Shown piece after piece: positions 1-52,732 of a stretch of 52,732 bases of DNA (its first letter is position 1; each line of letters begins with the position of its first letter). The translations under genes and the position numbers were made by a program. The DNA comes from a virus (Duplodnaviria; Caudoviricetes). The DNA is taken from positions 1 through 52,732 of IMG/VR virus record IMGVR_UViG_3300017913_000199. One strand, written 5' to 3'. The notes below the pieces were generated by a model. That model was given only the letters and a program-made list of their open reading frames with translations, ran no database searches and was not told where the DNA came from.

Positions 1-141
1 CCTAGTCCGCCATAGCCATCGCTTTGTGCTTCACTACCATCGGAAGCACCACCCCCTGTGTGACCGCCGCCACCGCCACTATTTGTTCCGGGATCTCTTC
101 CAGTTTCCATGCCTAGCCCAGTAGCAGATCCCATCCCCGGC
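1..141. repeat. 141-bp terminal overlap identical to 52592-52732 (assembly circularisation)
   Basis: Exact match of both contig ends; it falls inside a continuous ORF. Confidence 0.95.
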
Positions 142-1187
142 CCAATACCAGCACCTGCCTTAGAACTTCCTAAGTCTGCGGCACTTTGTCCACCAGAATA
201 TCCAAATTCTCCGGGTCGAGCAGTTTTTCCTACATCAAATGTTGGAGCTTTTGCAGTGTCAGTCCACGTTTTTGTCTTGTAATCAAACGCACGTACAGGA
301 ACCGGTAATCCGGTTCTTGAATCTATTGATGTTGCAACCCCGCTAAATGCGCCTCCATACCCACCAAAAATACCCCCTGTTCCTCCTGCGCTTGTATCCC
401 AACCGTATAAGTCTGTAGCAACAGCAGAAGTTATATTTGGTAAACCATACGTAGCTTGAGGAGACAAACCCATAGCAACAGACCGTGCAGGGCCATACGT
501 TGTTACAGTAGAAGATAGTAAAGCATTTGTGATTGCGTCTTTATAGTCAGACATAGAAACTATTCCGGGCGGACTTCCTATATTACCACTTAGAGTATAA
601 CCTTCAACGTTAAATCCAAGAGCACTTGCAATTTTACCCCCTATAGTATCGGCTGTCGGTTTAACTCCTACGAGTTGATTGCCCAGTAAACCTGCACTAT
701 AATCCTTGTTCTGAGACTTTGATGCTATATCCGTCAGGTTTGCCATGTTAAGCTCATACCCAAGCTCCGACAAAGGACCAAAAATTCCGGGCATCATTGC
801 GCCTATCGCTTGTGATGCCCCCGTAGCTCTAACTGTTCCTGTTAAGGGATTTAATGCAGTAGGAAAACCAAAGTAAGATTCTACTCTATCAGATACATAA
901 TCCTTTATAGCATCTACATACCCCGATAGAGAAGAGGTAGCGGGTGTAGCGGAAGGAGCGGAAGGAGTGGAAGGAGTGGAAGGAGTGGGAGTTGTCGGTG
1001 CACTATCTTCACCCCCCACATCTCTTTCAACTGTTGTACCAACTTCGGCTGTTGCAGCGGCTCTGCCCGTTCCTATGGGACCTATAGGAAACCCCCTGCC
1101 TCTTCTACCTCTAGGGGCAAAACCCCCCTCTACACTTCTTATAGTGTAGGGAAGCACTCTCAACCCTAGTGAAGAATAGTCCGCCAT
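1..1187 (-). CDS. N-terminal part of a ~740-aa putative virion protein that continues across the junction into 52591..51556
   Basis: ATG at 1187 (MADYSSLGLRV...) is in frame with the ATG at 134 (=52725); includes a PST-repeat low-complexity stretch at about 950-990. Confidence 0.8.
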   Translation of the reverse strand, partial: MADYSSLGLRVLPYTIRSVEGGFAPRGRRGRGFPIGPIGTGRAAATAEVGTTVERDVGGEDSAPTTPTPSTPSTPSAPSATPATSSLSGYVDAIKDYVSDRVESYFGFPTALNPLTGTVRATGASQAIGAMMPGIFGPLSELGYELNMANLTDIASKSQNKDYSAGLLGNQLVGVKPTADTIGGKIASALGFNVEGYTLSGNIGSPPGIVSMSDYKDAITNALLSSTVTTYGPARSVAMGLSPQATYGLPNITSAVATDLYGWDTSAGGTGGIFGGYGGAFSGVATSIDSRTGLPVPVRAFDYKTKTWTDTAKAPTFDVGKTARPGEFGYSGGQSAADLGSSKAGAGIGPGMGSATGLGMETGRDPGTNSGGGGGHTGGGASDGSEAQSDGYGGL

Positions 1188-1418
1188 TTAAATGTCTCTA
1201 GCCTTTACTGCCGCGTTGTAGTCGTCTTTTAAGCCTTTAAGCGTTTCCAGTGAAGTTATCTTCCCCTGCAGCCGGAACACTTCCAGTTCCGATCTGGCCC
1301 CCACCAACGCCCGAAGCGTCATCTGGATTTGCTCCTGCAGGAGCGTTTCCAGACTGTTCCATGCTTCCTTGTTGGTCACCAACGGGCTGACCTTCCGGGC
1401 CTGTTCCTTGTTGAGCAT
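1188..1418 (-). CDS. Small hypothetical protein downstream of portal
   Basis: 76-aa helical ORF overlapping the portal 3' end and abutting the next start. Confidence 0.7.
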   Translation of the reverse strand: MLNKEQARKVSPLVTNKEAWNSLETLLQEQIQMTLRALVGARSELEVFRLQGKITSLETLKGLKDDYNAAVKARDI

Positions 1419-3339
1419 TAGCTGCTAGTCCTTTCAGCATTTCGGCAAAGATTTGTGCTTCGTTTACATCGTTGACCAAGCTGTCAGGATCGATATCCTG
1501 TGCAATTGCAAGTTCGCGCATCAAATTAGGTATCTTGATGAACGGTGCCAGCATGGGGTTGGATACGGTCTGTAGCAGGGTGGTTAGTCTCTGACTACGA
1601 ACTTCTTTTTGCATCACAGCAGCAACGCCGCGAGGCTTAATTTCTAAATCACCTTCAATGTCTGGTGCATCTTCGTTAAACTGCATGTTCCATTGAAAAT
1701 ACGCTTCGCCCAGTGGCTTTAGCAGTGCATCATCAATGTTCTTAATTACAGTCTTTAGGGATAAGCTTGCGCCACCTAGAAGCATTGATAAGCCGGATGC
1801 TGTGCGTCCTGTACCACTAACGCCTGTCTGTCCGTGCATAATAGAAGGCAGTCCAGTCTCTTCGTCAGCAAGCTGTCGGCTAATCTGATACATCTGAATG
1901 TTTTCAGGTGCTGTATTAGGAAACTTTAAGCCGTTAACTGCCGTACCAGATACCCCAGATTGACGACGAAAAATCTTGCCGGGGAATATATCCATGTTCT
2001 GTCCGGGAACCAAGCTTGCTTCATCTACGTCAAGAACTAAGTTACCAGCAAGGGCTAAGTTGTCGATTGCCATCCGAACGTGACCGTTCATCAACATCTG
2101 TGCATCTTCCATGTTTTCTGCTACGCCAACACCCCACATTTGATAGGGGTTAATTTCGTAAGGGAATACATGAAAAGGGATACGAGCAGGGGTAAACGGA
2201 TTTAATACGCAGCGAATAACTTCATCCCCGCAAATCCATACATTGACCTGTACTTGATCCATCGGCCCCATACTAACGGGTACGTCCATACCGACTTCAT
2301 TAGCCATCTTTGCGTCTAAAACACCCCAGTATTCTAGAACTTCAAAACGATTTTCTTGATAGTACGCTTCCGTTTCATCTTCACGAATAGTATCTTCATA
2401 GTATTTATCTATGTAGTTTGAGCCTTTTGCAATTACGTCTTCGATAGCTTCTTTGTAAAAGTATGGATGATTGATAAGCCCACGAAGCTGCTGCCTATTC
2501 ATACGGTGTCGTTGGATGACGTATTCCGCGTCTTCTATGCTTGTTGCAGAAGGATCGGGGTGAAAGTCCCATACAGAAACGTGCTCTAAACGAGGTACGA
2601 TTTTTTCGTAAGGATTGTACTCCCTGTTTCCTTCTTCGTTCTTTTCCCACCTGTGCACACGCTTGTAAAAGTTAAACGGTCCTTTTACAATACCTGTACC
2701 CAATAGTGCAGATTCAAAAATAGCACTGCGAAATACATTTACAGCACTGGTATCCAGTAGCTGATCGTGAATTTGCTTTTCCATGTTTAGGGCGGCTTTT
2801 TGAGCAGGGGAAATCTGAGGCTCCCCCATTAAAGCCGGACCTTGTGCTAATGGTGCACCGTTATACCTGTCCTTCAATCCACCTAAGAAGTCTCCTGCAG
2901 GTGATGCTTCCAGTGCTCCCGGCTCTAAGGTTCTACCATCGCCTTCATACCCATAAGGATCAACAATATCATCTAAGGGCGTTTTTAAGTGAGCGAATTC
3001 TGCAATACCTTCAGGCACAGGTGTAGGTTCGATAACAAGCGGAAACTTTTTATTCGCAAACAAAATGTCAATGATCTGCCCGTATGCAGCAAGAACTTTT
3101 GTTTTGGTAATCTTGATGAATACCTTTGAACGTTCGGTTTCACGATACTGTGTTGTAGAATCGTAAATACCTCTGAAATTCTTAAACGCTTTTAGCCAAC
3201 GCTGTTCGTAAGCGTAACGCCCGTTTTCAGAATCTTCAAACTTTTTGCGAATATAGCCAGCAAGACCCGGCATATCCCCTTCAGGATCAATAACCGCTAC
3301 CTGATCATCATCTGGTGGTTGTAGGAAATTTTCAGACAT
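1237..3339 (-). CDS. Portal (head-tail connector) protein
   Basis: 700 aa, podovirus portal-like sequence (FESALLGTGIVKGP, WGVGVAENMEDAQ, PGKIF), located after terL. Confidence 0.9.
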   Translation of the reverse strand: MSENFLQPPDDDQVAVIDPEGDMPGLAGYIRKKFEDSENGRYAYEQRWLKAFKNFRGIYDSTTQYRETERSKVFIKITKTKVLAAYGQIIDILFANKKFPLVIEPTPVPEGIAEFAHLKTPLDDIVDPYGYEGDGRTLEPGALEASPAGDFLGGLKDRYNGAPLAQGPALMGEPQISPAQKAALNMEKQIHDQLLDTSAVNVFRSAIFESALLGTGIVKGPFNFYKRVHRWEKNEEGNREYNPYEKIVPRLEHVSVWDFHPDPSATSIEDAEYVIQRHRMNRQQLRGLINHPYFYKEAIEDVIAKGSNYIDKYYEDTIREDETEAYYQENRFEVLEYWGVLDAKMANEVGMDVPVSMGPMDQVQVNVWICGDEVIRCVLNPFTPARIPFHVFPYEINPYQMWGVGVAENMEDAQMLMNGHVRMAIDNLALAGNLVLDVDEASLVPGQNMDIFPGKIFRRQSGVSGTAVNGLKFPNTAPENIQMYQISRQLADEETGLPSIMHGQTGVSGTGRTASGLSMLLGGASLSLKTVIKNIDDALLKPLGEAYFQWNMQFNEDAPDIEGDLEIKPRGVAAVMQKEVRSQRLTTLLQTVSNPMLAPFIKIPNLMRELAIAQDIDPDSLVNDVNEAQIFAEMLKGLAANAQQGTGPEGQPVGDQQGSMEQSGNAPAGANPDDASGVGGGQIGTGSVPAAGEDNFTGNA

Positions 3340-3347
3340 AGGTGTCC

Positions 3348-3557
3348 TTAATAGTCGCGTTCTTCAGCCAATTTCATTACTGAAGGATCAACTGCTTTCT
3401 TTGTCATCTTCTTTGGCATGTCTTCAGTCAAAACACCTTGCTTTGCTTTGGTGTCGAACTCAAGACCTTCCCGATACAGTTTGTTGCAGCCCATCATGTC
3501 GTCAACATTAGTTTTGTCGCTGTTCATAATGTAAGCTGGACCCATATTCATGTTCAT
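3348..3557 (-). CDS. Hypothetical protein
   Basis: 69-aa ORF with GGAG RBS filling the gap before portal. Confidence 0.75.
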   Translation of the reverse strand: MNMNMGPAYIMNSDKTNVDDMMGCNKLYREGLEFDTKAKQGVLTEDMPKKMTKKAVDPSVMKLAEERDY

Positions 3558-3573
3558 GGTTTAGTCTCCCAAT

Positions 3574-5592
3574 TTATGGTGTGTAGGAAATGAAGCCTGT
3601 TGCATCTTCCCCAGAACGAGCGGCTCCTCTCGCTTGGCGTAATCTTTCTGGATTAGAAAGAAAAGAAGTAGGTACGTTTTGCACAGCATCCGGTACCCTC
3701 TGTCTTCTTTGAAAAGGTTCACTTTCTGTAATCTGTATTCTTGGCAGGTTATTTGTATTTGGCTGTAAAGATGGTGCAGGGGGTGCAAGAGATGGCACTG
3801 TAGGGGCGGAAGCTGCACCGGGTTCAGGCTGTCTTGCACGAGCGGCCTGTATCATACTAGGTTCTTCAGGAATTGCTTGTGCAACTGAAACAACGTCACT
3901 AGGAGCAATCGGAAGAAACTCTGTAGCCCCTGCTGCTACTCCTGCTGCACCAGCTATTGGAGCAGGTAATCCTAATGCTTCTGCTTGTTGCGTAACTGCG
4001 CTACGAGTTTGTTCTGCAGCGATAGCAGCCATACCATAGCCAACAGGGGGTAAGATAACTTTTAACGGCCCTTTGAGTGGCTTTGCCATGTTAAGAGCCT
4101 TTGCAAGAAAGTCCTCGCCTGATGCAACTTGGGCTGCTTTCTTTTGTCCTGACCGCGCTTCTGCAAGTTTACGTTCTGCTTCGACGATCTCTGGTGCACG
4201 TTCTGCACGTTCTATCATCTTAGCTTCTGCTGCTGCAGACTTTTCCTGTGCAGCTAGTTCGGCTGTGGCTGCAGCCTCTGCAGTCTTTGCTGCCCGAAGC
4301 TGTTCACCCTGTGCAATCTCTTCCGGTGTCGCTACTCTGGTTTCTACAGGTGCGCCAGACGGACGTGCAAGGGCTTCTGTTTCTGGGTAGTCTGCGTTAA
4401 AATCTTCAGGTAGATCTAAGCGAAGTGCTTCCCCCAATCCTTTTGCATCAGAAGCACCGACAGCATCTGCCATCATTTTTTCGTAGGCAAGAAGTATTTC
4501 GCCGCGCTGCTGTAAGCCACCAATGTCTTCTACATCAGTATAGTAGCCTGTCATAACTTTGTCAAGTAAACTATCGCCCCCACCTTTGTGGCTGATAATT
4601 TCACTTGCTAAGTCAGGACGACCAAGTTGGTTTGCAATGGCAGAAGCAGTGATACGTCGTAGATCTGTATAGCCAGAAGGTTTAGTTAATAGCTTGTCTT
4701 GTACTTCTTTTGGTATCTTTGGAAAAACGTGTTTCTTTAAAGCTGCAGATATCTTTCCTGTAGACATATCTGGAAAGAGTTCGCCTGTATCTCCTGCAGC
4801 ATCGAAACGACGATCTAAAATTGCACGAAGAACTGGACCTGCAGGTTTATCTGGCCCTTTTCCTTTACGACCCCCGCCTGTAGCTACTTCTGGATCACGA
4901 GCGATACCTGCTTCTCTGTCGTAGTATGGACGTGCAGGACTAACTCGTACTGCAAGGTCGCGGCTTGTACGCATACCTGCTAAGTCTTCTCCCCGATAGC
5001 CAAGAAGGGACGCCATAACAGCATCCCTTGTAACTGGATCAGGAATATCGCCTATGCCTTCCAAAACCGACTGGAGAACTTCTGGCGGTATGGCACCTTT
5101 TGCAAGTTTGCGGGTGCCTTTTGCAGCACCTGTACGAGACAGCTTTAAGTCGGTTACATTTGTTGTTGCTGTTCTAAACGGACGAACAATATTCTTTCGT
5201 ATGTCGTCGCCAATACCCCCTGTCGGTGACTTAGACAATTCTTCAAATGAATCGAACGGCTGATCTAAATCGATTTCTTTTTTAGATAGCTTTGCAAGGT
5301 TGTTTGAAATGCCCAGAGTATTACGGGCAGGACCAATTACCTCACGAGAAAATGCAGTATTAAACTTGTTGTAAAATTCTTTTGTATCGTCTAGTTCAGC
5401 AAGAAGGGGTTCATTAGGAACACCATCATTATACATCTTTGCAATAAAAGCATCACGGATAGTATAGTTACCCGTGTCGATACGCTGCTTTACTTCTTCT
5501 AGGGAAGGGATGTTACCATCAGGAAACAGGTTTGTTTGTACCTGACGAAAAGCATCTACAACCTTTTGTTCGTTTTTGGTTAGTTGTGCCAT
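3574..5592 (-). CDS. Tyrosine recombinase-like protein with long C-terminal extension
   Basis: Motifs in catalytic order: LLGYRGEDL (R), RKGK (K), YTDLRR (HxxR-like, H replaced by T), IISHK (H), TGYY (Y). Confidence 0.7.
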   Translation of the reverse strand: MAQLTKNEQKVVDAFRQVQTNLFPDGNIPSLEEVKQRIDTGNYTIRDAFIAKMYNDGVPNEPLLAELDDTKEFYNKFNTAFSREVIGPARNTLGISNNLAKLSKKEIDLDQPFDSFEELSKSPTGGIGDDIRKNIVRPFRTATTNVTDLKLSRTGAAKGTRKLAKGAIPPEVLQSVLEGIGDIPDPVTRDAVMASLLGYRGEDLAGMRTSRDLAVRVSPARPYYDREAGIARDPEVATGGGRKGKGPDKPAGPVLRAILDRRFDAAGDTGELFPDMSTGKISAALKKHVFPKIPKEVQDKLLTKPSGYTDLRRITASAIANQLGRPDLASEIISHKGGGDSLLDKVMTGYYTDVEDIGGLQQRGEILLAYEKMMADAVGASDAKGLGEALRLDLPEDFNADYPETEALARPSGAPVETRVATPEEIAQGEQLRAAKTAEAAATAELAAQEKSAAAEAKMIERAERAPEIVEAERKLAEARSGQKKAAQVASGEDFLAKALNMAKPLKGPLKVILPPVGYGMAAIAAEQTRSAVTQQAEALGLPAPIAGAAGVAAGATEFLPIAPSDVVSVAQAIPEEPSMIQAARARQPEPGAASAPTVPSLAPPAPSLQPNTNNLPRIQITESEPFQRRQRVPDAVQNVPTSFLSNPERLRQARGAARSGEDATGFISYTP

Positions 5593-5595
5593 TGA

Positions 5596-7266
5596 TTAGT
5601 ATCCGAATACTTCGTCTTGTGCTTTGTACACGTGGTTTTTGATTGCACCTAGTTGTTGATGTATTGCAGAGTATCCACTCATCCGTGTCATCACCATGTA
5701 TCGTAGTGCGTCGTATGCGTGGTCTTCAGCCTTCGTGTCTACGTCTTCGCTATTCGTTTTTGATAGAGGTATTCCCGCAAGCTGCTTAATGGTATGCTGG
5801 CAGGTAGAAAATACTCGTAAGCGTGGTTCTTCTGTGTACGGATCATTGCCTAATCTTCTGTGGATTTCCATCTTACCTTGAATACGGTTACGATCAGATG
5901 GCGTCCAGCGTACACCGCAACGCATCATTGTTTCTGCTATAGATGGGCCGAAACCTGTTTTGTTCCAACAAGACGAATCCAAAACAGTGTAGTGGGGTAA
6001 AGGATCTAATTCCTCTACTTCTAGTATTCTATCAGCTAAATCTTCTGCTGTCAAGTGTTTTGCGTATAACTCACGATAGACCCAAATATTATTATCCCAA
6101 TCAATAGCACCCCAAAGAACTGCAGACGGGGACGAATAGCCATAGTCCGCTGCTCTAATGCGAGGCCAATTGGTAGGTAATTCGAAAGGTTCGACAACGT
6201 GTCTACTCCGTGAAAACTCTGGGAAGGCCGCTCCCTCTGCCACATCCCAATCCCCCTCTAGAAGTCTCTTCCGCTCAACTTCTGGGAGCGAACGCAACAT
6301 GGCTTCGTATTGTCCGTCAGCCATGAGGTGGGGATTATCAGTCAACCGTGCAGGAACAAACTTGCGGTAGAACAACGGCTGACCTGCCTTCTCGTGACCT
6401 TTAGGCCACACAAAGGGCTTCATTGTATCTATGTCGTACGCAGCAAACGCTTCGTTTTCTGTGCGTGAGTCGATGTACATTTTCTTAACCCACCAGCCAC
6501 CGACGCCGCCGGGGTTGGCTGTACAACGCATGTATAGATTGTTTTGAAGTTCAGGATCTGTGGAACGTAGTCTAGAACGTAAATAGTCCCAGACGTAAGG
6601 GGTTGGGTATTGGGTTATTTCGTCTATGCCTATCCAGTTAAACGCCTGACCCTGAAAACGGGTTACGTCTTTATCCCTGTCTAGGTAGGTAAACCAAATC
6701 GTGGCACCTGATGGAAAGACCCACGTTGATTTTGATTCGCGGAACTTTGCTCCGGGGAACGCCTTTGTATATAGTTGGCGTGATTTGTCTATCAGTTCGG
6801 TTAGTTCGTCGAGGGTGCGTCTTAGAAGAAGACCCCGGTGATTGGGATTATGGCAATAGCGTAGGGGATCAGCAAGTAGAGCAAATGACTTACCACCGCC
6901 AGCCGCTCCCCCATATAGGACATCTCGCTCACCCGCTGAAAGAAACTCTTCTTGAGGACCGGGGTTAGCTTGGAAAACAACTTCAGAATCACCAACAAGG
7001 TCGGAAACGGATGGGGGTAGAACGGCGAGATCTCCCTCATCGATGACGTTTGTTCCTTTTCCAGTGACTCCCTTTTCAACTCTTCCAATTGTTTCTTCCA
7101 GCTTTCGGGCATAACTTCTTTGTGCTTCCGCTTTCTTTGTAGCTTGTGTAGCTTTCTTCCTTGCGGCCCGTAGACGCTTCTGTGCCCCACGACGGGCACG
7201 TTCAGCGGTGGACAATTGATAGGTTCGTTTAGTCTTTTTCGGCTGAACCGTTTGCTTTTCTGCCAC
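5596..7266 (-). CDS. terL: Terminase large subunit
   Basis: Walker A GGAAGGGKS, Walker B IGIDE, TANPGG, nuclease AADYG and DHAYDALRY; probable GTG start at 7266. Confidence 0.95.
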   Translation of the reverse strand: MAEKQTVQPKKTKRTYQLSTAERARRGAQKRLRAARKKATQATKKAEAQRSYARKLEETIGRVEKGVTGKGTNVIDEGDLAVLPPSVSDLVGDSEVVFQANPGPQEEFLSAGERDVLYGGAAGGGKSFALLADPLRYCHNPNHRGLLLRRTLDELTELIDKSRQLYTKAFPGAKFRESKSTWVFPSGATIWFTYLDRDKDVTRFQGQAFNWIGIDEITQYPTPYVWDYLRSRLRSTDPELQNNLYMRCTANPGGVGGWWVKKMYIDSRTENEAFAAYDIDTMKPFVWPKGHEKAGQPLFYRKFVPARLTDNPHLMADGQYEAMLRSLPEVERKRLLEGDWDVAEGAAFPEFSRSRHVVEPFELPTNWPRIRAADYGYSSPSAVLWGAIDWDNNIWVYRELYAKHLTAEDLADRILEVEELDPLPHYTVLDSSCWNKTGFGPSIAETMMRCGVRWTPSDRNRIQGKMEIHRRLGNDPYTEEPRLRVFSTCQHTIKQLAGIPLSKTNSEDVDTKAEDHAYDALRYMVMTRMSGYSAIHQQLGAIKNHVYKAQDEVFGY

Positions 7267-7546
7267 GATGCTTCCTTGCTTGCCCAATCAAAACACTAAG
7301 TTCTTTTGAAAATTCTGTTCCGGTCATCCCGTCTGGTACACGGATAGCATCTCCACGACGCATAGCTTCTTTGATTGCTTCCTCTGCTGATAGTTTAATC
7401 AGCCCTTCTTTATCACGACGAATAGTGGGAGCAACGTACTCTATGTCATCTTGTTCAAAACTAATGGTGCGAACAGTTTCGTTTGCATATGTAGCTGGGG
7501 TAGATGGGTCCATCGCTCGTGCCAACCATGCTGGACGTTCAGCCAT
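7229..7546 (-). CDS. Hypothetical protein with C-terminal RGRKANGSAEK motif
   Basis: ORF with RBS; motif shared with neighbours. Confidence 0.75.
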   Translation of the reverse strand: MAERPAWLARAMDPSTPATYANETVRTISFEQDDIEYVAPTIRRDKEGLIKLSAEEAIKEAMRRGDAIRVPDGMTGTEFSKELSVLIGQARKHRGRKANGSAEKD

Positions 7547-7561
7547 CGATAACTACCCCAC

Positions 7562-8032
7562 CTATGCCTTTGAGCCGTCTGCTTTTCTGCCACGATGAAC
7601 CTTTCCACCGTAGTTGTAAGCGGGTGTACTGCTAAACATACCTATAAATGCACCTATACCGGGTATAGACTTCAAGCCTATGCTTTTTGCAATGCTTGTG
7701 GCTGTCTTCGGTTTCAAGTCTTTTAGGATATTCTTTTGTTCGTTTATGTAAGCAGTTCGTACTTTACGGTCTTCTGTACTGAGGTTAGAAGGCTTAATTT
7801 TTTGTAACTGCGCCAAGCGCGTTTCTGCTGCAGCTTTTCTAGCCTTGTTTCTTCCTTGAGAAGTTTTCTCTTTACGGGTTTCGGCACGTTGTCTCTGTAT
7901 ATCCCTGCTTCTGTTACGCCGCTTATTTTCTTGTCTCGCGCTAATAGCTTCAGTAGCAGCTATTGCTCCTACCGCACCAGTCATTGCTCCAGCGTATCCT
8001 AACGCTTCTTTTTCTTTTCTACTAAGTTCCAT
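7562..8032 (-). CDS. Basic hypothetical protein with C-terminal YGGKVHRGRKADGS motif
   Basis: ORF with GAGG RBS. Confidence 0.75.
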   Translation of the reverse strand: MELSRKEKEALGYAGAMTGAVGAIAATEAISARQENKRRNRSRDIQRQRAETRKEKTSQGRNKARKAAAETRLAQLQKIKPSNLSTEDRKVRTAYINEQKNILKDLKPKTATSIAKSIGLKSIPGIGAFIGMFSSTPAYNYGGKVHRGRKADGSKA

Positions 8033-8048
8033 CGATAACTACCTCTAC

Positions 8049-8513
8049 CTATACCTTATAGTTTGCTCTGCGTCCGCGACAGGCTTTACCACCGTACTTC
8101 ATATCTGTACGTTCTTTTGGTGCGGGTCTACGTGCAGGGTTTCTTTTGGGAACTTTCATTCCCAACTCTGTGCTATAACCTTTTGTTGCGCCGGGGTGTG
8201 TTAAATCTGTCTTAAATTTATTTGCTTCAGCCCTACGCTTTTTCATAGTTGTTTCTTTTTTGTCTTTTATATTAAGCATAGGCTGCTTAACTTTTGCGTA
8301 GGTTTCTGAATCAAACTCACGTAGACGAACATCTTTGTTGATAAGTCTGTTCCGTGACCTGTCTTTTGGTACAGCAGCTATGTTTTGGTTCTCTACAATC
8401 TTATCATAAACCTTTTTTTGTTTATCAGTAAGATTCTTCACTTCAGCAGCAGTTATCTTACGAAAGCCTTCATTAAACTTTGCGCGAGCCTTATCTTCAT
8501 CATCAAGAGCCAT
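8049..8513 (-). CDS. Basic hypothetical protein with C-terminal YGGKACRGRRAN motif
   Basis: ORF with GAGG RBS. Confidence 0.75.
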   Translation of the reverse strand: MALDDEDKARAKFNEGFRKITAAEVKNLTDKQKKVYDKIVENQNIAAVPKDRSRNRLINKDVRLREFDSETYAKVKQPMLNIKDKKETTMKKRRAEANKFKTDLTHPGATKGYSTELGMKVPKRNPARRPAPKERTDMKYGGKACRGRRANYKV

Positions 8514-8907
8514 CGATTACGACCTCTTTCTTCGGTGGCAACAGGACTACGCCGTGCACTGCCGTTACATTGTGATTGATTTGTTCCTGCTTTGCTACGC
8601 CGACGCGATTCAAAAGCGACTCAGCGGCTTTGAGGCGCAGGTCATCACCTCTTTCCGGGGCGGGGTTATCTATCGTCTGAATTACACGGTTAGCTGCCTT
8701 CATTGCGTTGGTAGCTAGGATGGTTTTGGTGCGTTCGATGATCTCATCTGCAAGTGTGGACTTGAGCCACGCTGCAGATCCACGAGAATACCCTGCATCG
8801 ATGGCAGCAGCAGTTACCTGACCGCCATTTTCAAATAGAAGTTCCAAGAACTGTTCCTGTTGCGGGGTCAATTCCTTCTTTTTGTGTGTCTGGGGGAGTA
8901 GATTCAT
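8503..8907 (-). CDS. terS: Terminase small subunit
   Basis: LTPQQEQFL...AAAIDAGYS HTH-like N-terminus, LKAAESLLNRVG, upstream of terL. Confidence 0.8.
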   Translation of the reverse strand: MNLLPQTHKKKELTPQQEQFLELLFENGGQVTAAAIDAGYSRGSAAWLKSTLADEIIERTKTILATNAMKAANRVIQTIDNPAPERGDDLRLKAAESLLNRVGVAKQEQINHNVTAVHGVVLLPPKKEVVIDGS

Positions 8908-9103
8908 CGTTGTTTTCCAAAACCGACTTACAGCGACTACGTATTACAACTTCGAATACCTGTCGCTCGTAAATGTACGTTGCCATTTCATCGTTTCGCA
9001 ACATACACTCTTTTTCTGTGGGGTATGGACCTTCTGTGTCGCGTATTTCACGGCACAAATCTGGTCCAGTAGCTAGGCAGACAAGAATCCAAGATTCAAA
9101 CAT
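8831..9103 (-). CDS. Small Cys-containing hypothetical protein
   Basis: First ORF after the late promoter; AGGA RBS. Confidence 0.65.
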   Translation of the reverse strand: MFESWILVCLATGPDLCREIRDTEGPYPTEKECMLRNDEMATYIYERQVFEVVIRSRCKSVLENNDESTPPDTQKEGIDPATGTVLGTSI

Positions 9104-9221
9104 GTCTGATTTCCTTTTTTATGTTGTGGGAAGGTTAGTTTGTAGCCTCAAACCCCTAATGTCAAGCATATTGTGTTGGTTTTTGCCGGGATGTGCTAAG
9201 TAAACCTCTGCCCACATCACA

Positions 9222-9250
9222 AGTATACCGTCTATAACTATGTAAGTCAA
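9222..9250 (-). promoter_or_regulatory. Sigma70-like promoter for the packaging/structural arm
   Basis: TTGACT-17bp-TATACT on the minus strand. Confidence 0.8.
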
Positions 9251-9311
9251 CAAGAATATACCCATAGGTTATCTTTTTTACTAAAAAAAATAAATTTGCC
9301 TACGAATATTC

Positions 9312-9340
9312 TTGACAAATCGGAAAATTACCTATACAAT
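9312..9340 (+). promoter_or_regulatory. Sigma70-like promoter driving a putative small RNA
   Basis: TTGACA-17bp-TACAAT with an A/T-rich upstream tract. Confidence 0.8.
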
Positions 9341-9346
9341 GGGGTT

Positions 9347-9438
9347 AAGACCCCCCGGGAAATAACCCATTACCCCCCGGCTACCCCTACACGTCGGTTT
9401 CATACCCCTTCGGGATACCCCGTTGGGGTCTTTTTTTG
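9347..9438 (+). ncRNA. Putative ~90-nt small RNA
   Basis: Begins at the predicted +1; AAGACCCC pairs with GGGGTCTT; ends in hairpin ACCCC-GTT-GGGGT plus a T-run; no credible ORF. Confidence 0.55.
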
Positions 9439-9491
9439 CCTAAACTCCGCCGGGGTAACCCGCCGGGGCACCCCTACACGTCGGTTTCATA
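9383..9491 (+). repeat. 22-bp perfect direct repeat ACCCCTACACGTCGGTTTCATA (9383-9404 and 9470-9491)
   Basis: Direct reading of the sequence. Confidence 0.95.
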
Positions 9492-9826
9492 GCCATATCG
9501 GTAACCCCTCAAATATAAAATTGCTGTCGGGATTGCATACAGATACCGGTACCCCCCGGGTGGCCCTTGTGTACCCCATAGGGGCGTCCCCCATTGCCAA
9601 TGCCGTGGATCACCATCGACAGACAAACCCACAAAACCGCCGCGCATATTTTCCCCGCCTATATCGCGCCGTTTGTTTCTTTTTTTTAGTCCCCGTTGAC
9701 ACCTTGCCCATATAGAAAACCTGCACGGCAAGCCGTAGAGGTCAACATAACACACAAAACAAACACCCCCGACGCTGGATTTGTCCCGCAATATCAAACC
9801 CAAACCGGATATTTCAGGCGATAGTC

Positions 9827-34666: not shown

Positions 34667-35230
34667 TTACATGTCCCCCATAGCTAAAAAGGACTGCGGT
34701 GTCTGTTTTGGTGCAGTATCTTGAACAGGCTGAGACTCCCGCTTTGCCATCATTTCTATTTCCATACGCTCTTGTCGGTTTAGTTCTTCGTTCATTGCTT
34801 CGAATAGTTCAGGGTTGCGCTGTTTTAAGATTCTAAAGAATGAAACGTCGTCAACCTCACCCTCTACAATACCTTCTTCTTGGTTGGGGTCTATCATCAT
34901 ACGTGGTTCAAGACCCTCTTCCAAACCCTTGTGGTATAAGTATATACCGACACTGGGCTTAATCAGTTCGGCTACATCGGGCGTGTAGAATCCACTCATA
35001 AAACCTTTGAAAGCAATCTGGGAAACCAACTCTTCGATAGATATCCCTGCAGCCATGAGGCGTAGTATGTCGCGTTCACGAGTCGGTTCTTCTAGCTTAT
35101 CCAAAACAAAGTCCAGAGCCTCATCGGGATTTGTAAACTGCGGCGGTCTTTCCCACGGCCACTGTCCGGGTCTATCTGTAAGGGAATGTCCCGGCGGGGC
35201 TGCTACAGCAGTAATCTTTTCCATTGTCAT
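34667..35230 (-). CDS. Putative virion protein
   Basis: PGHSLT..PGQWPWERPPQF motif. Confidence 0.7.
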   Translation of the reverse strand: MTMEKITAVAAPPGHSLTDRPGQWPWERPPQFTNPDEALDFVLDKLEEPTRERDILRLMAAGISIEELVSQIAFKGFMSGFYTPDVAELIKPSVGIYLYHKGLEEGLEPRMMIDPNQEEGIVEGEVDDVSFFRILKQRNPELFEAMNEELNRQERMEIEMMAKRESQPVQDTAPKQTPQSFLAMGDM

Positions 35231-45255: not shown

Positions 45256-45516
45256 TTAGGTTGAAACAGGGTCATTACGTTTTTCGGCTAGTCTTTTTTT
45301 CTTCAACATACTTTTAGCATCCCTTGTAGAAGGAAAACCCGGCGCAAATTTTCTAACTCTACCTGCCCCAATATTTGCACGATGCTCCGTTTTTTGTCTT
45401 TGAATAATAGTATTCATTTCATTGGCACCGTCATCCCCTCTTAGTTCTTCACTAGGAGCAGCTTTACGCGGGGCACCAGAATAATTTTTTCCGTTTGGTT
45501 TTACTTCTATTGGCAT
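45256..45516 (-). CDS. Basic hypothetical protein (RKAAPSEE motif)
   Basis: Coupled ORF. Confidence 0.6.
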   Translation of the reverse strand: MPIEVKPNGKNYSGAPRKAAPSEELRGDDGANEMNTIIQRQKTEHRANIGAGRVRKFAPGFPSTRDAKSMLKKKRLAEKRNDPVST

Positions 45517-45710
45517 TAGGTAAACGCGACCTTCCTTCCCTTCTTCATTAATTCAATAGCTTTGTCAGTTGGTTTATCTGGTACATATATACCGCCCGAT
45601 TCTAGTTTACGAGGGGGCCTATCAAGCACACGCATATCATATTCGAGAGACCTTTGTATATCTGATTTGTTTTTTTCAGCACTTTCCTCTGCGGGTCTTC
45701 CTTTAGACAT
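45516..45710 (-). CDS. Hypothetical protein (N-terminal GRPAEESAEK motif)
   Basis: MSKGRPA start right after upstream stop. Confidence 0.6.
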   Translation of the reverse strand: MSKGRPAEESAEKNKSDIQRSLEYDMRVLDRPPRKLESGGIYVPDKPTDKAIELMKKGRKVAFT

Positions 45711-45711
45711 T

Positions 45712-45990
45712 TTACCTTGTCTCCCTGCTACGCATGGCACCACGCGGTTGAACTTTGCCGCCATACATCTTTTGAGATTTGCGATAATCTGCATAATCGG
45801 ATGCACTACCGAAATAGCTAGGCAGTTCCATACCCTGCTCTTTATATATGTCTTTAATATTGTCTATGTTATTTTCATAGTATTTCTTGTGCATACGATA
45901 AGGTGCACTAGAAGGAAAGGGCTTGGCTACACCACTAACTTCTTTCGGTTCCTCTTTAGCCATTCCTATTTTTTCTGCTATAGTTTTCAT
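45712..45990 (-). CDS. Hypothetical protein (C-terminal MYGGKVQPRGAMRSRE motif)
   Basis: MKTIAEK start coupled to lysozyme stop. Confidence 0.65.
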   Translation of the reverse strand: MKTIAEKIGMAKEEPKEVSGVAKPFPSSAPYRMHKKYYENNIDNIKDIYKEQGMELPSYFGSASDYADYRKSQKMYGGKVQPRGAMRSRETR

Positions 45991-46475
45991 TAAAATTCCC
46001 CTGTCTTCATCGCATCCGAAAGTATACGTGCCCTTCGGCCTACCTGCCGTGCCCACTTCGAATCCATCATTTCAAACCCTGCAGCTTCAAAGTTTTCTTC
46101 GTGGATTGCAGACCACATCTTCTTAAATTTGCACAGACGGGGTACACCCATGTTGAATGCCATGTCCATCAGGACGAGTTGACGAACAGCATCCAAGTTC
46201 TCTACGCATTCGTGAACTCTACACAGTTCGCTTTCTACAATCTTGATGTCGTTCATTGCAAGAAATCGCGCATCGGCTTCGGTAATGCCGTGCTGATACA
46301 CAGTTTCCATATTTGGAATATCTAGGTAGGCAAGCTCTTCTTTGCTAATGCCTCTGTCTTTCAAGTTACGACCGATACCGATTGTGTCGATACCAAGCGT
46401 GTCCTGATAGACTTCAAGAACCATACCTTCGTGTTCGATAAGTTTATCTAAGAAATGCGACGCATTATACTTCAT
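45990..46475 (-). CDS. Endolysin, T4-type (GH24) lysozyme
   Basis: HEG-x-YQD-x-TIGIG catalytic E/D/T, DMAFNMG, SKWARQV. Confidence 0.92.
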   Translation of the reverse strand: MKYNASHFLDKLIEHEGMVLEVYQDTLGIDTIGIGRNLKDRGISKEELAYLDIPNMETVYQHGITEADARFLAMNDIKIVESELCRVHECVENLDAVRQLVLMDMAFNMGVPRLCKFKKMWSAIHEENFEAAGFEMMDSKWARQVGRRARILSDAMKTGEF

Positions 46476-51555: not shown

Positions 51556-52732
51556 TTATTTAAGAGCACGGAGCACTTTAGTGGCGTAGTTTGGACCTTC
51601 GCCATAAGATGCTAAAGCTTTTTGTAAGCTGTCGTGATCTTGTAACTTTTGCATTAATGTTATGTTTGCAATTGTATCGTAGTGTTTTTTGTGTAGATTT
51701 GGATCTATTTGTCCTGTACCATACCTACCATACAACTTTTTAATATCATCTGGGGTGGATACCTTTTTACCATCCCTATACATAGCTCTATATTTTTCTA
51801 TGTTTATTTTATCGTCGCCCTGTTGGATAAGAAGATCCATATACTGTTTTTCTTCATCACCTAACATATCGTAAAATTTGCTACGGGTTTTAATGTCTTT
51901 TAAAGTGCTTGCAGTTATTTGCATAGGACCAAACGCCGATGAGGCTGCTTTCTTACGTTTGATGCCTGTAAATATATAGGGGTTGTCTTCAAACCCTTTT
52001 ATTTCTACAGTTTGTATTGCAGATTTAATATCACCAAACCTACGACCAAAATACAAATCATCATCTATTGACGGGGGTGGTTGATCAAGAAACCCTGAAC
52101 CTTGCGAAGTGGGTGTGCCGGATATTTTGGGACTGTCTGGGCCAATTACCTGAGAAACAAACCCTCTATCTATCTCGGCTATACCCCCTTCGTTCAAACC
52201 AACGCCGCCGCCGTACTTAGCTTGTCTGCGCTGTACTTCAGGTTTACCTTTGTCGTTTAACTTATCTAGGAATCCCTTGCCCTTCATCTTTTCAATTTGG
52301 GCAACTACTTCAGGCTCTATGTGGCGTTCACCATCAGAAAGTGCAACATCTACCATAGGTGCATCTTTGGGTTTCTTTACTTTCTTTTCAGCTTTTGCTA
52401 CCAAGCTGTCAAGCATACCCTCGTATTTTTCGTTGGTAGGTTGGTTTACGATAAACGAACCTTCCTTCACGCTGGTAAATCTATTGTCTGCAATAGACTC
52501 TTGTTCGTTTACAGAGTCGGGGTCTTTGTTTACGAAGCCGTTGGTTACGTTGCCGCCGGGAGCATACTCTACACGTCCGCCTGAAGCATGGCCTAGTCCG
52601 CCATAGCCATCGCTTTGTGCTTCACTACCATCGGAAGCACCACCCCCTGTGTGACCGCCGCCACCGCCACTATTTGTTCCGGGATCTCTTCCAGTTTCCA
52701 TGCCTAGCCCAGTAGCAGATCCCATCCCCGGC
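51556..52732 (-). CDS. C-terminal part of the ~740-aa virion protein; lytic transglycosylase/lysozyme-like domain
   Basis: AIQTVE, SSAFGPMQIT, ALASYGEG.NY..KV motifs. Confidence 0.75.
   Translation of the reverse strand, partial: PGMGSATGLGMETGRDPGTNSGGGGGHTGGGASDGSEAQSDGYGGLGHASGGRVEYAPGGNVTNGFVNKDPDSVNEQESIADNRFTSVKEGSFIVNQPTNEKYEGMLDSLVAKAEKKVKKPKDAPMVDVALSDGERHIEPEVVAQIEKMKGKGFLDKLNDKGKPEVQRRQAKYGGGVGLNEGGIAEIDRGFVSQVIGPDSPKISGTPTSQGSGFLDQPPPSIDDDLYFGRRFGDIKSAIQTVEIKGFEDNPYIFTGIKRKKAASSAFGPMQITASTLKDIKTRSKFYDMLGDEEKQYMDLLIQQGDDKINIEKYRAMYRDGKKVSTPDDIKKLYGRYGTGQIDPNLHKKHYDTIANITLMQKLQDHDSLQKALASYGEGPNYATKVLRALK
52592..52732. repeat. Copy of bases 1-141
   Basis: Exact match. Confidence 0.95.

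Follow-up and report, generated by a model that had tools for sequence, protein, structure and literature searches.

Tyrosine recombinases cleave and religate DNA by way of a covalent 3'-phosphotyrosine link. They include XerCD, which resolves Holliday junctions and dimers, and the Cre protein of phage P1, which can circularise terminally redundant incoming phage DNA. A separate group of enzymes travels inside virus particles: the N4 virion RNA polymerase, T7 gp16 and the SPP1 gp7/MuF proteins with fused toxin domains are carried in phage heads, and the type IB topoisomerase (TopIB) of vaccinia is packaged in virions. Here we describe a gene of an uncultured tailed phage, IMG/VR record IMGVR_UViG_3300017913_000199, whose product combines a predicted tyrosine recombinase with a long C-terminal tail and is encoded between the large terminase (terL) and portal genes. 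We call the gene (positions 3574-5592) and its 672-aa product X; the window is the whole 52,732-nt stretch of the record that was analysed.

X belongs to a known superfamily; its architecture and its genomic role are new, and it is unannotated in the sources used. A whole uncultured clade carries this complete tyrosine recombinase, overlooked by standard annotation, as the fastest-changing gene of its head and packaging operon. The clade belongs to the HMO-2011-type phages, which rank with the most abundant marine viruses known; most of their subgroups are described in PMC9038755 without any recombinase or lysogeny gene. Our literature search returned no report of a recombinase encoded at this position or present in virions, the orthologous-group tables of PMC9038755 being outside its reach.

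X encodes a divergent tyrosine recombinase

The open reading frame (ORF) of X runs on the minus strand from an ATG at 5592 to a stop codon at 3574-3576. The whole gene, its two N-terminal domains and the codons of the putative active site are placed as follows.

3574..5592, minus strand: gene X, comprising an N-terminal domain, a tyrosine-recombinase domain and a tail (ORF list, translation and 148 metagenomic homologues)
5122..5592, minus strand: N-terminal helical domain, residues 1-157 (confident helices in AlphaFold2 model m7446a5bc4aa0)
4357..5121, minus strand: tyrosine-recombinase catalytic domain, residues 158-412 (domain model, Foldseek and profile matches)
4993-4995, minus strand: codon of R200 (Arg I), in LLGYRGEDL
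4864-4866, minus strand: codon of K243 (beta-hairpin Lys), in GGGRKGKGP
4657-4668, minus strand: T309-D-L-R312, the HxxR box, with T309 at 4666-4668 and R312 (Arg II) at 4657-4659
4588-4590, minus strand: codon of H335, in IISHKG
4540-4542, minus strand: codon of Y351, in TGYYTDV

A first-pass annotation of the window, made from the letters alone, had pointed out R, K, TxxR, H and Y motifs in tyrosine-recombinase order. The codons listed above bear this out, and the motifs are conserved both in an alignment of 50 homologues with identities as low as 18% and in 99 distinct alleles taken from 120 loci. In the alignment R200, R312, H335 and Y351 are the only invariant columns and K243 is kept in at least 90% of the sequences; since these are the sole invariant columns among 50 divergent homologues, the order of the catalytic residues reflects more than chance. 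Among the alleles, Arg I, Arg II and F273 are each present in 99/99 and K243 in 90/99, position 335 is His in 72, Arg in 26 and Ser in one, and a Tyr occupies column 350 or 351 of every one of the 100 rows (the 99 alleles and the query). Identity to the window's catalytic domain falls to 12-20% within this collection. The chemistry appears to be under selection, because the catalytic residues stay while the rest of the enzyme diverges, and the predicted recombinase-type active site is complete and under strong purifying selection.

In X, Arg I and the Lys are 43 residues apart, Arg II and the His 23, and the His and the Tyr 16. An Arg II-to-His spacing of 23 is the value of recombinases and not that of TopIB; the usual His-to-Tyr spacing is about 9.

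Structure prediction points the same way. AlphaFold2 models residues 1-410 confidently, and the isolated domain 158-412 reaches a predicted local distance difference test score (pLDDT) of 89.4. A Foldseek search of PDB with the full-length model returned noise only, and the isolated domain was required to obtain usable matches. With the domain model, the first four ranks in PDB were lambda Int, Leishmania TopI, Flp and lambda Int, at expectation (E) values of about 1, and in BFVD the majority of the top ~29 matches were named integrases (best E 1.9e-3, probability 1.00, template modelling score at most 0.53). In a feature search of the ESM Atlas, 22 of 30 matches were PF00589 clusters.

The decisive step for linking X to solved recombinases was to widen the family to all allele groups, in a profile (A4) built from 40 catalytic domains. 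Searched against PDB, it matched the XerC-like protein 4a8e_A (E 2.1e-11), XerD 1a0p_A (E 5.6e-8), XerA 5hxy_A (E 7.4e-7), XerH 5jjv (E 7.7e-6), the Tn1549 integrase (E 2.2e-5) and lambda Int (E about 4e-3). The alignments span box I, the Lys hairpin, box II and the LLGH...Y end, with Arg I, Lys, Arg II, His and Tyr in register: R200 falls on the GLRVSEL box of 4a8e, and the His and Tyr on the LLGH...Y of the XerC-like protein and XerD. A direct comparison of A4 with lambda Int by hhalign gave a probability of 60.6 (E 8.3e-5), and the profile A3 paired R200 with R212, K243 with K235, T309-x-x-R312 with H308-x-x-R311 and H335 with H333. The tyrosine-recombinase fold proposed in the first-pass annotation is thus upheld by the domain model, the BFVD integrases, the Xer profile matches and the lambda Int register.

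Individual alleles are recognised less readily. Of 40 isolated allele domains, 19 match PF00589 at E <= 0.1 (best 1.5e-7), and five of ten full-length alleles match PHROG integrase families 216 or 1; against PF00589 none of these ten reached the gathering cut-off of 27.1 bits, the best scoring 20.4, and the PF00589 model found nothing in the whole window genome. The 148 metagenomic homologues, about 650-800 aa long, have no Pfam domain and 'hypothetical protein' as their sole description. Searching 1.8 billion cluster representatives without filters yielded 89 clusters. X is too divergent for routine annotation.

The N-terminal domain sits where recombinases carry their core-binding domain and has no family match in Pfam, in PHROG or with a hidden Markov model (HMM) of the domain. 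Together with the catalytic domain it makes up about 410 aa, which in size and layout corresponds to a complete Xer/integrase-type recombinase. On this evidence we place X in the tyrosine-recombinase superfamily, nearest the simple Xer/integrase type, and regard it as very probably catalytically active.

X is a hypervariable cassette at a fixed position

The immediate neighbours of X, all on the same strand, are the following.

5596..7287, minus strand: large terminase terL (PHROG 979 at E 1.5e-61, PF03237)
3348..3557, minus strand: 69-aa ORF separating X from portal (found wherever a locus extends that far; own GGGAG ribosome-binding site)
1237..3339, minus strand: portal, SU10 type (PF23899 at E 7e-26, PHROG 332, PHROG 1216)

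We compared this region across two sets of loci, one of 66 IMG/VR loci found through X and one of 80 loci picked by the portal protein alone (portals 73-92% identical). In the first set, the order terL-X-69aa-portal holds in 66/66 wherever flanks exist (63 with terL, 61 with portal), and the remaining loci end inside or just after X; the synteny of the window is therefore shared by all loci with flanks. Pooling the two sets gave 120 loci with both terL and portal, each with a single ORF of 522-806 aa filling the slot between them, corresponding to 99 distinct proteins. A catalytic-domain HMM run with HMMER filters off recognised 76 of these 99 in round 1 and all 99 by round 3, and many of them were missed by tblastn with the window protein. 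As far as the sampled sequences go, X is a fixture of one uncultured HMO-2011-type clade.

In loci L001, L009, L032, L035, L054, L058 and L137, whose slot ORFs are 749-806 aa long, some alleles begin about 95-150 aa before the usual start; the additional N-terminal segment opens with MADDLNDVIE... in alleles P0005 and P0073.

Identity of selected loci to the window, gene by gene and domain by domain, is given below.

L032: terL 98%, portal 97%, 69-aa ORF 99%; N-terminal domain 36%, catalytic domain 62%, tail 66%
L071: terL 94%, portal 91%, 69-aa ORF 91%; N-terminal and catalytic domains without a BLASTP match, tail 50%
L002, L003 and L007: terL 96-97%, portal 88%, 69-aa ORF 96-97%; N-terminal domain 100%, catalytic domain 99-100%, tail 54-55%

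The opposite patterns of L071 and of L002, L003 and L007 imply that the enzyme and tail modules reassort independently. The 69-aa ORF is 97-99% identical in loci where X is only 49-57% identical (L032, L038 and L039) and tracks the backbone lineage, not the X allele. DNA similarity between relatives breaks off precisely at the end of the terL reading frame and the start codon of X. In the loci compared, no other gene of the operon comes close to X in variability, and we regard this hypervariable, modular cassette as the main feature of the locus. The roughly 100 divergent enzyme modules on one scaffold amount to a ready-made collection of recombinases, presumably with different site specificities.

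A conserved tail follows the enzyme

The first-pass annotation had described a tail of about 300 aa. A tail after the catalytic domain is indeed present in 99/99 alleles, at 149-305 residues (median 259), and measures about 265 aa in X. In the AlphaFold2 model the putative Ala/Glu coiled coil read from the sequence is a single long helix, the Ala/Gly and Pro-rich stretches come after it, and the tail is divided as follows.

4087..4326, minus strand: long Ala/Glu/Lys/Arg-rich helix, residues 423-502 (AlphaFold2 model, pLDDT about 88-93 up to ~480)
3835..4035, minus strand: Gly/Ala-rich, moderately hydrophobic helices, residues 520-586 (helices 520-539, 544-556, 564-573 and 579-586)
3667..3834, minus strand: Pro-rich linker of variable length, residues 587-642 (pLDDT below 50)
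3577..3666, minus strand: C-terminal helix 643-660 and terminal anchor motif, ...ATGFISYTP (AlphaFold2 model)

Over the 99 alleles the median fraction of Ala, Glu, Lys, Arg and Gln in the first 90 tail residues is 0.51. The variable length of the linker is also seen in public sequencing data, of which we used 20 runs as assembled contigs: contigs of three DNA runs from other samples have 10 nt in place of 76 nt (3700-3775), in frame, which shortens the linker by 22 codons.

A motif of the form [GSNDE]F[LIMVFN] lies within the last 16 residues of 80/99 alleles, compared with 6% of other 16-aa windows from the same proteins, and the ends differ in detail (GFISYTP, GSFLN, SFLYGGIVR, GFLSR and others). 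That a terminal anchor peptide is kept despite divergence suggests that the C-terminus docks on a conserved partner.

Several possible relationships of the tail were pursued and set aside. Searched against PDB, the full-length profile A2 gave coiled-coil and low-complexity matches, among them Klebicin G (9hn1_D, E 1.6e-4, P0001 residues ~401-567), which we take to be compositional, the overlap consisting of the Ala/Glu helix and the Gly/Ala patch. The ESM Atlas gave no usable match to the tail. HMMs of the tail and of the N-terminal domain found nothing else in the window or its relatives save the expected X fragment in L152; a weak match (E 0.005) to an ORF of phage CRP-207 was disregarded. 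A complex prediction of the portal (A5) with residues 620-672 of X (A1) scored 0.00, a value that counts neither for nor against binding. Mimicry of the scaffold C-terminus (GFISYTP compared with RIDYQS, GSFLN with RIDLNS) was rejected because the scaffold end is near-constant while five X ends pair with RIDFNS, and linkage explains the rest.

A tag of the form RxAxxSxE shared with small accessory ORFs was likewise dropped, the Ser not being conserved in X homologues; the pattern R.A..S.E occurs in 6 of 339 ORFs including X, three times within the last 20 residues. Small unrelated ORFs at 7229-8513 and 45256-46056 end in YGGK...RG(R/H)(K/R)A(N/D), and some X alleles in SFLYGG(I/V)VR; the YGGK and R.A..S.E endings may represent a shared address peptide. 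A 187-aa protein (34667-35230, minus strand) ends in ...QSFLAMGDM, which resembles the allele ends DSFLTMQP and SFLTMSP. It lies just before two giant proteins of 1010 and 1593 aa, an order that we take to resemble the gp14-16 internal-core layout of T7.

Operon and genome context

X lies co-oriented between terL and portal within the late packaging operon, as the first-pass annotation had it. Only 3 nt separate the terL stop codon from the ATG of X, and 16 nt the stop codon of X from the ATG of the 69-aa ORF. X is probably translationally coupled to terL. Over positions 1-9600 we counted 14 promoter-like sites, compared with 12.9 in shuffled controls, and 16 terminator-like sites, compared with a shuffled mean of 9.7 (standard deviation 3.6); neither kind of site is in excess over shuffled controls around X. 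Its expression is late, from one tightly packed operon shared with terminase, portal, scaffold and coat.

The window is a 100%-complete virus record, assembled with direct terminal repeats. A 787-aa ORF directly downstream of the portal reads in frame across the record ends (3-1187 joined with 51556-52731, minus strand), which indicates that the record is a circular permutation of a complete genome. Other genes encode a DnaB-type helicase, a family A polymerase, a Cas4-type nuclease and a ribonucleotide reductase, as well as coat and tail proteins of podovirus type. The nearest cultured relatives of the portal, at 44-52% identity, belong to Pelagibacter phages HTVC033P, HTVC115P and HTVC103P, to the Puniceispirillum phage HMO-2011 and to the CRP phages of Roseobacter. 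From these relationships we assign the window phage to an uncultured HMO-2011-type group.

In the public data, contigs of RNA run X16 cover terL and portal and none lies on 3601-5600 at 90% likeness, and in the DNA runs the summed contig depth is lower over the enzyme part of X than over its flanks. We count neither as a finding.

What fills the interval between terL and portal differs among relatives. In HMO-2011 and CRP-207 the portal follows terL directly with no gene between them, HTVC033P and HTVC115P have three or four small ORFs there, and Sinorhizobium phage phiM6 (L151, 1008-4857) has phoH, five small ORFs and a 535-aa SGNH/GDSL hydrolase directly before the portal. These varied contents suggest that the interval is a general cargo site in this phage lineage. 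X itself was not detected in these relatives: the family profile had no match in the five records (a result that is weak on its own), the iterated domain HMM found no X around the portal of the same five or in seven metagenome-assembled contigs with 50-74% identical portals, and tblastn with three different X alleles had no match in 50,697 phage records.

Possible functions of X

The position of the gene and the anatomy of the tail lead us to a tentative proposal, which we prefer to the alternatives below, namely that X is quite possibly a late-made, capsid-targeted recombinase that is delivered with the DNA. The tail would fasten the enzyme to the assembling head or to the packaging vertex, so that X would be enclosed with the DNA and enter the next cell alongside it. 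There it could act on the incoming phage genome ahead of all phage gene expression. The reaction would be a strand transfer on that genome, for which the joining or circularising of terminally repeated DNA is the simplest candidate. Since enzyme and tail modules are exchanged independently, many specificities would coexist in the population. A recombinase delivered in this way would be a new kind of phage pilot enzyme. A bolder form of the idea, which we think unlikely, is that a capsid-loaded, injected recombinase makes DNA rearrangement without gene expression the first event in the cell; the rearrangement could be circularisation, integration or an attack on host DNA, by analogy with retroviruses carrying their integrase. 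In that form, an interchangeable enzyme library on a common delivery tail might be the phage counterpart of polymorphic effector systems.

The first-pass annotation had named 22-bp repeats or an octamer as candidate targets of the enzyme. The repeats are exact (9383-9404 and 9470-9491), lie within a 49-nt repeat and contain the nonamer GTCGGTTTC, which occurs 15 times in the window where 0.29 copies are expected (at 9393, 9480, 9879, 10371, 10484, 12975, 14100, 14290, 18393, 19282, 20759, 23706, 25846, 34073 and 39334). Five copies on the same strand lie in the gene-poor stretch at 9.3-10.5 kb, two of them inside the 22-bp repeats. Loci L120 and L141 also have nonamer clusters upstream of terS, and the 22-mer is present with 1-3 mismatches; their enzyme modules are unrelated to that of the window or 27% identical by BLASTP. 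The nonamer is probably a regulatory, origin or pac element.

A number of observations tell against a delivered recombinase of this kind. The presence of X in virions is something we infer from gene position and tail anatomy. The tail has no match to known internal, ejection or scaffold protein families in Pfam, PHROG, the ESM Atlas or by tail HMM, and no transmembrane-grade segment was found, the median best 19-aa Kyte-Doolittle mean of the 99 tails being 1.25. The repeats and the octamer proposed as targets do not appear to be targets of X, because they follow the terL-side backbone and not the X allele, occurring also beside enzyme parts that are unrelated by BLASTP; nor did the genome contain a convincing lox- or dif-like site with two perfect arms and a 6-8 bp spacer. 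Sister phages do without X, and a virion of this design therefore does not depend on its function. Temperate integration modules, too, swap recombinase alleles between close relatives. As to the enzyme itself, the window protein alone had no match in Pfam, PHROG or PDB sequences, nor in any GenBank phage by tblastn, and the segment bearing the Tyr is modelled with low confidence. The usual His of the HxxR box is missing from the alleles: its position is T309 in the window, and the six residues most often seen there over the 99 alleles, T (50), S (23), K (9), Y (8), E (5) and R (2), do not include His. Since TopIB and telomere resolvases vary at this site too, the missing His does not exclude membership of the tyrosine-recombinase superfamily.

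The same missing His, together with a His-to-Tyr spacing of 16 where about 9 is usual, might be taken to mean that X is a non-catalytic structural or DNA-binding protein with a retained recombinase fold. The repressors of SPbeta and phi3T have such a fold, and the phi3T SroF structure (9rd5_H) is among the weak fold matches of X. We consider this very improbable, as Arg I, Arg II and Tyr are kept in every allele, Lys in 90/99 and a His or Arg at position 335 in 98/99, which is to be expected only where the chemistry is selected. An active enzyme could instead serve in the infected cell at packaging, without being delivered; held by its tail to terminase or portal, it would resolve concatemer junctions, dimers or branches or process ends. 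Its place directly after terL, the probable translational coupling, co-expression with the packaging machine and the junction- and dimer-resolving activity of XerCD are all in keeping with such a role, and docking on a conserved partner would suit the conserved C-terminal anchor. A fixed-site housekeeping enzyme should not, however, show allele replacement with unrelated N-terminal domains between phages whose terL and portal are 91-94% identical; sister phages with portals 47-62% and terminases 47-61% identical lack X, and no candidate site was found in the genome. A packaging-step function thus seems to us unlikely.

The possibility that X is the integrase of a cryptically temperate phage, with attP elsewhere or inside the gene (as in fuselloviruses, where attP lies inside the integrase gene) and with alleles that would serve different host attB sites, has several points in its favour. 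X has the full size of an Xer/integrase-type enzyme and its active site is intact. No second integrase was found in the genome, and allele exchange on near-identical backbones is typical of integration modules. Were it true, a supposedly lytic group would be temperate. Some HMO-2011-type subgroups are in fact temperate, but according to PMC9038755 their int gene lies upstream of the replication module and not in the packaging operon, and subgroups IV-X are reported there without lysogeny genes. X is packed between terL and portal with no non-coding DNA adjoining it. Searches of the whole 100%-complete genome gave no match to a canonical integrase, HTH_3 repressor, S24 peptidase, HTH_17 excisionase or serine recombinase/resolvase, in agreement with the first-pass observation that no repressor or excisionase is evident, and no tRNA or tRNA-like fragment that could mark an attP. 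Nor was X seen as an ordinary prophage gene: none of the 66 X-bearing IMG/VR loci has a phage-host junction at X, and a pattern scan of 185,579 species-representative genomes, which detects close relatives only, found no X relative. The scan did find seven portal relatives; all seven come from contigs of metagenome-assembled genomes that do not carry X, and one of them, a clade member, is a 2.9-kb fragment. A tail of 265 aa with a conserved end would also be left unexplained, and we judge a cryptic integrase to be rather improbable.

Similarly doubtful in our view is a conflict or selfish cassette that acts in co-infection competition, in defence escape or in its own replacement, with frequency-dependent selection keeping its diversity and the tail merely securing expression or location. 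The extreme allelic diversity, the shuffling of modules between conserved essential genes, the breaks in DNA similarity exactly at the terL stop and X start, and an interval that in relatives is empty or filled with small ORFs or with phoH and the SGNH hydrolase would all be expected of such an element. Yet the slot is filled in 120/120 loci with no presence/absence polymorphism, which is unexpected for a selfish element; the tail in all alleles and the terminal motif (80/99) point to a function tied to the phage machinery; and no repeats were seen at the 5' border of the cassette, the sole border examined.

Comparison with known systems

The Xer recombinases (4a8e, 1a0p and 5jjv) are the best profile matches of X. 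Both are two-domain enzymes of about 300-400 aa with the Arg-Lys-Arg-His-Tyr set and the same order of secondary structure. In X the place of the HxxR His is taken by Thr, Ser, Lys or Tyr, and the Lys hairpin region and the His-to-Tyr spacing are longer. X further differs in its N-terminal domain without a recognisable family, its tail of 150-300 aa and its place in the head and packaging operon, and no dif-like site was found for it. With the integrases of temperate phages (lambda Int, PF00589, PHROG 216 and 1) X agrees in fold and catalytic register, divergent alleles matching weakly; unlike them, it is a late gene without an arm-binding domain, attP, excisionase or repressor, and no prophages were found in the loci and species-representative genomes scanned.

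The likeness to the Cre-loxP system of P1 is a functional analogy only, that of a phage recombinase able to circularise incoming DNA. Alignment with Cre by hhalign was not meaningful, and Tre/Cre appeared only at rank 21 of the PDB fold search. Cre is not late or virion-linked, and its lox site adjoins the cre gene, whereas the X genome has no lox-like site.

The first-pass annotation had also considered a TopIB- or protelomerase-like enzyme. TopIB enzymes work without the HxxR His, and in this respect their active site is like that of X; Leishmania TopI (2b9s_A, rank 2, E 1.2) and human TopI (1lpq_A, rank 29, E 7.5) are among the weak PDB fold matches. TelK and TelN are similar in length to X. 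None of the 22 PDB matches of profile A4 is of either type, and no protelomerase (TelK, TelA, TelN or ResT) is among the PDB and BFVD fold-search matches listed; kinship with either type is not supported.

X differs from the enzymes carried in phage heads in that family searches gave no sequence or profile match to them, in that its variable module is N-terminal and always a recombinase, and in that X is known from genes alone. The likeness lies in the arrangement: as in the N4, T7 and SPP1 proteins, a gene of the head module beside the portal encodes an enzymatic domain joined to an extended helical, hydrophobic region, and as in the MuF-toxin fusions the enzymatic part is polymorphic.

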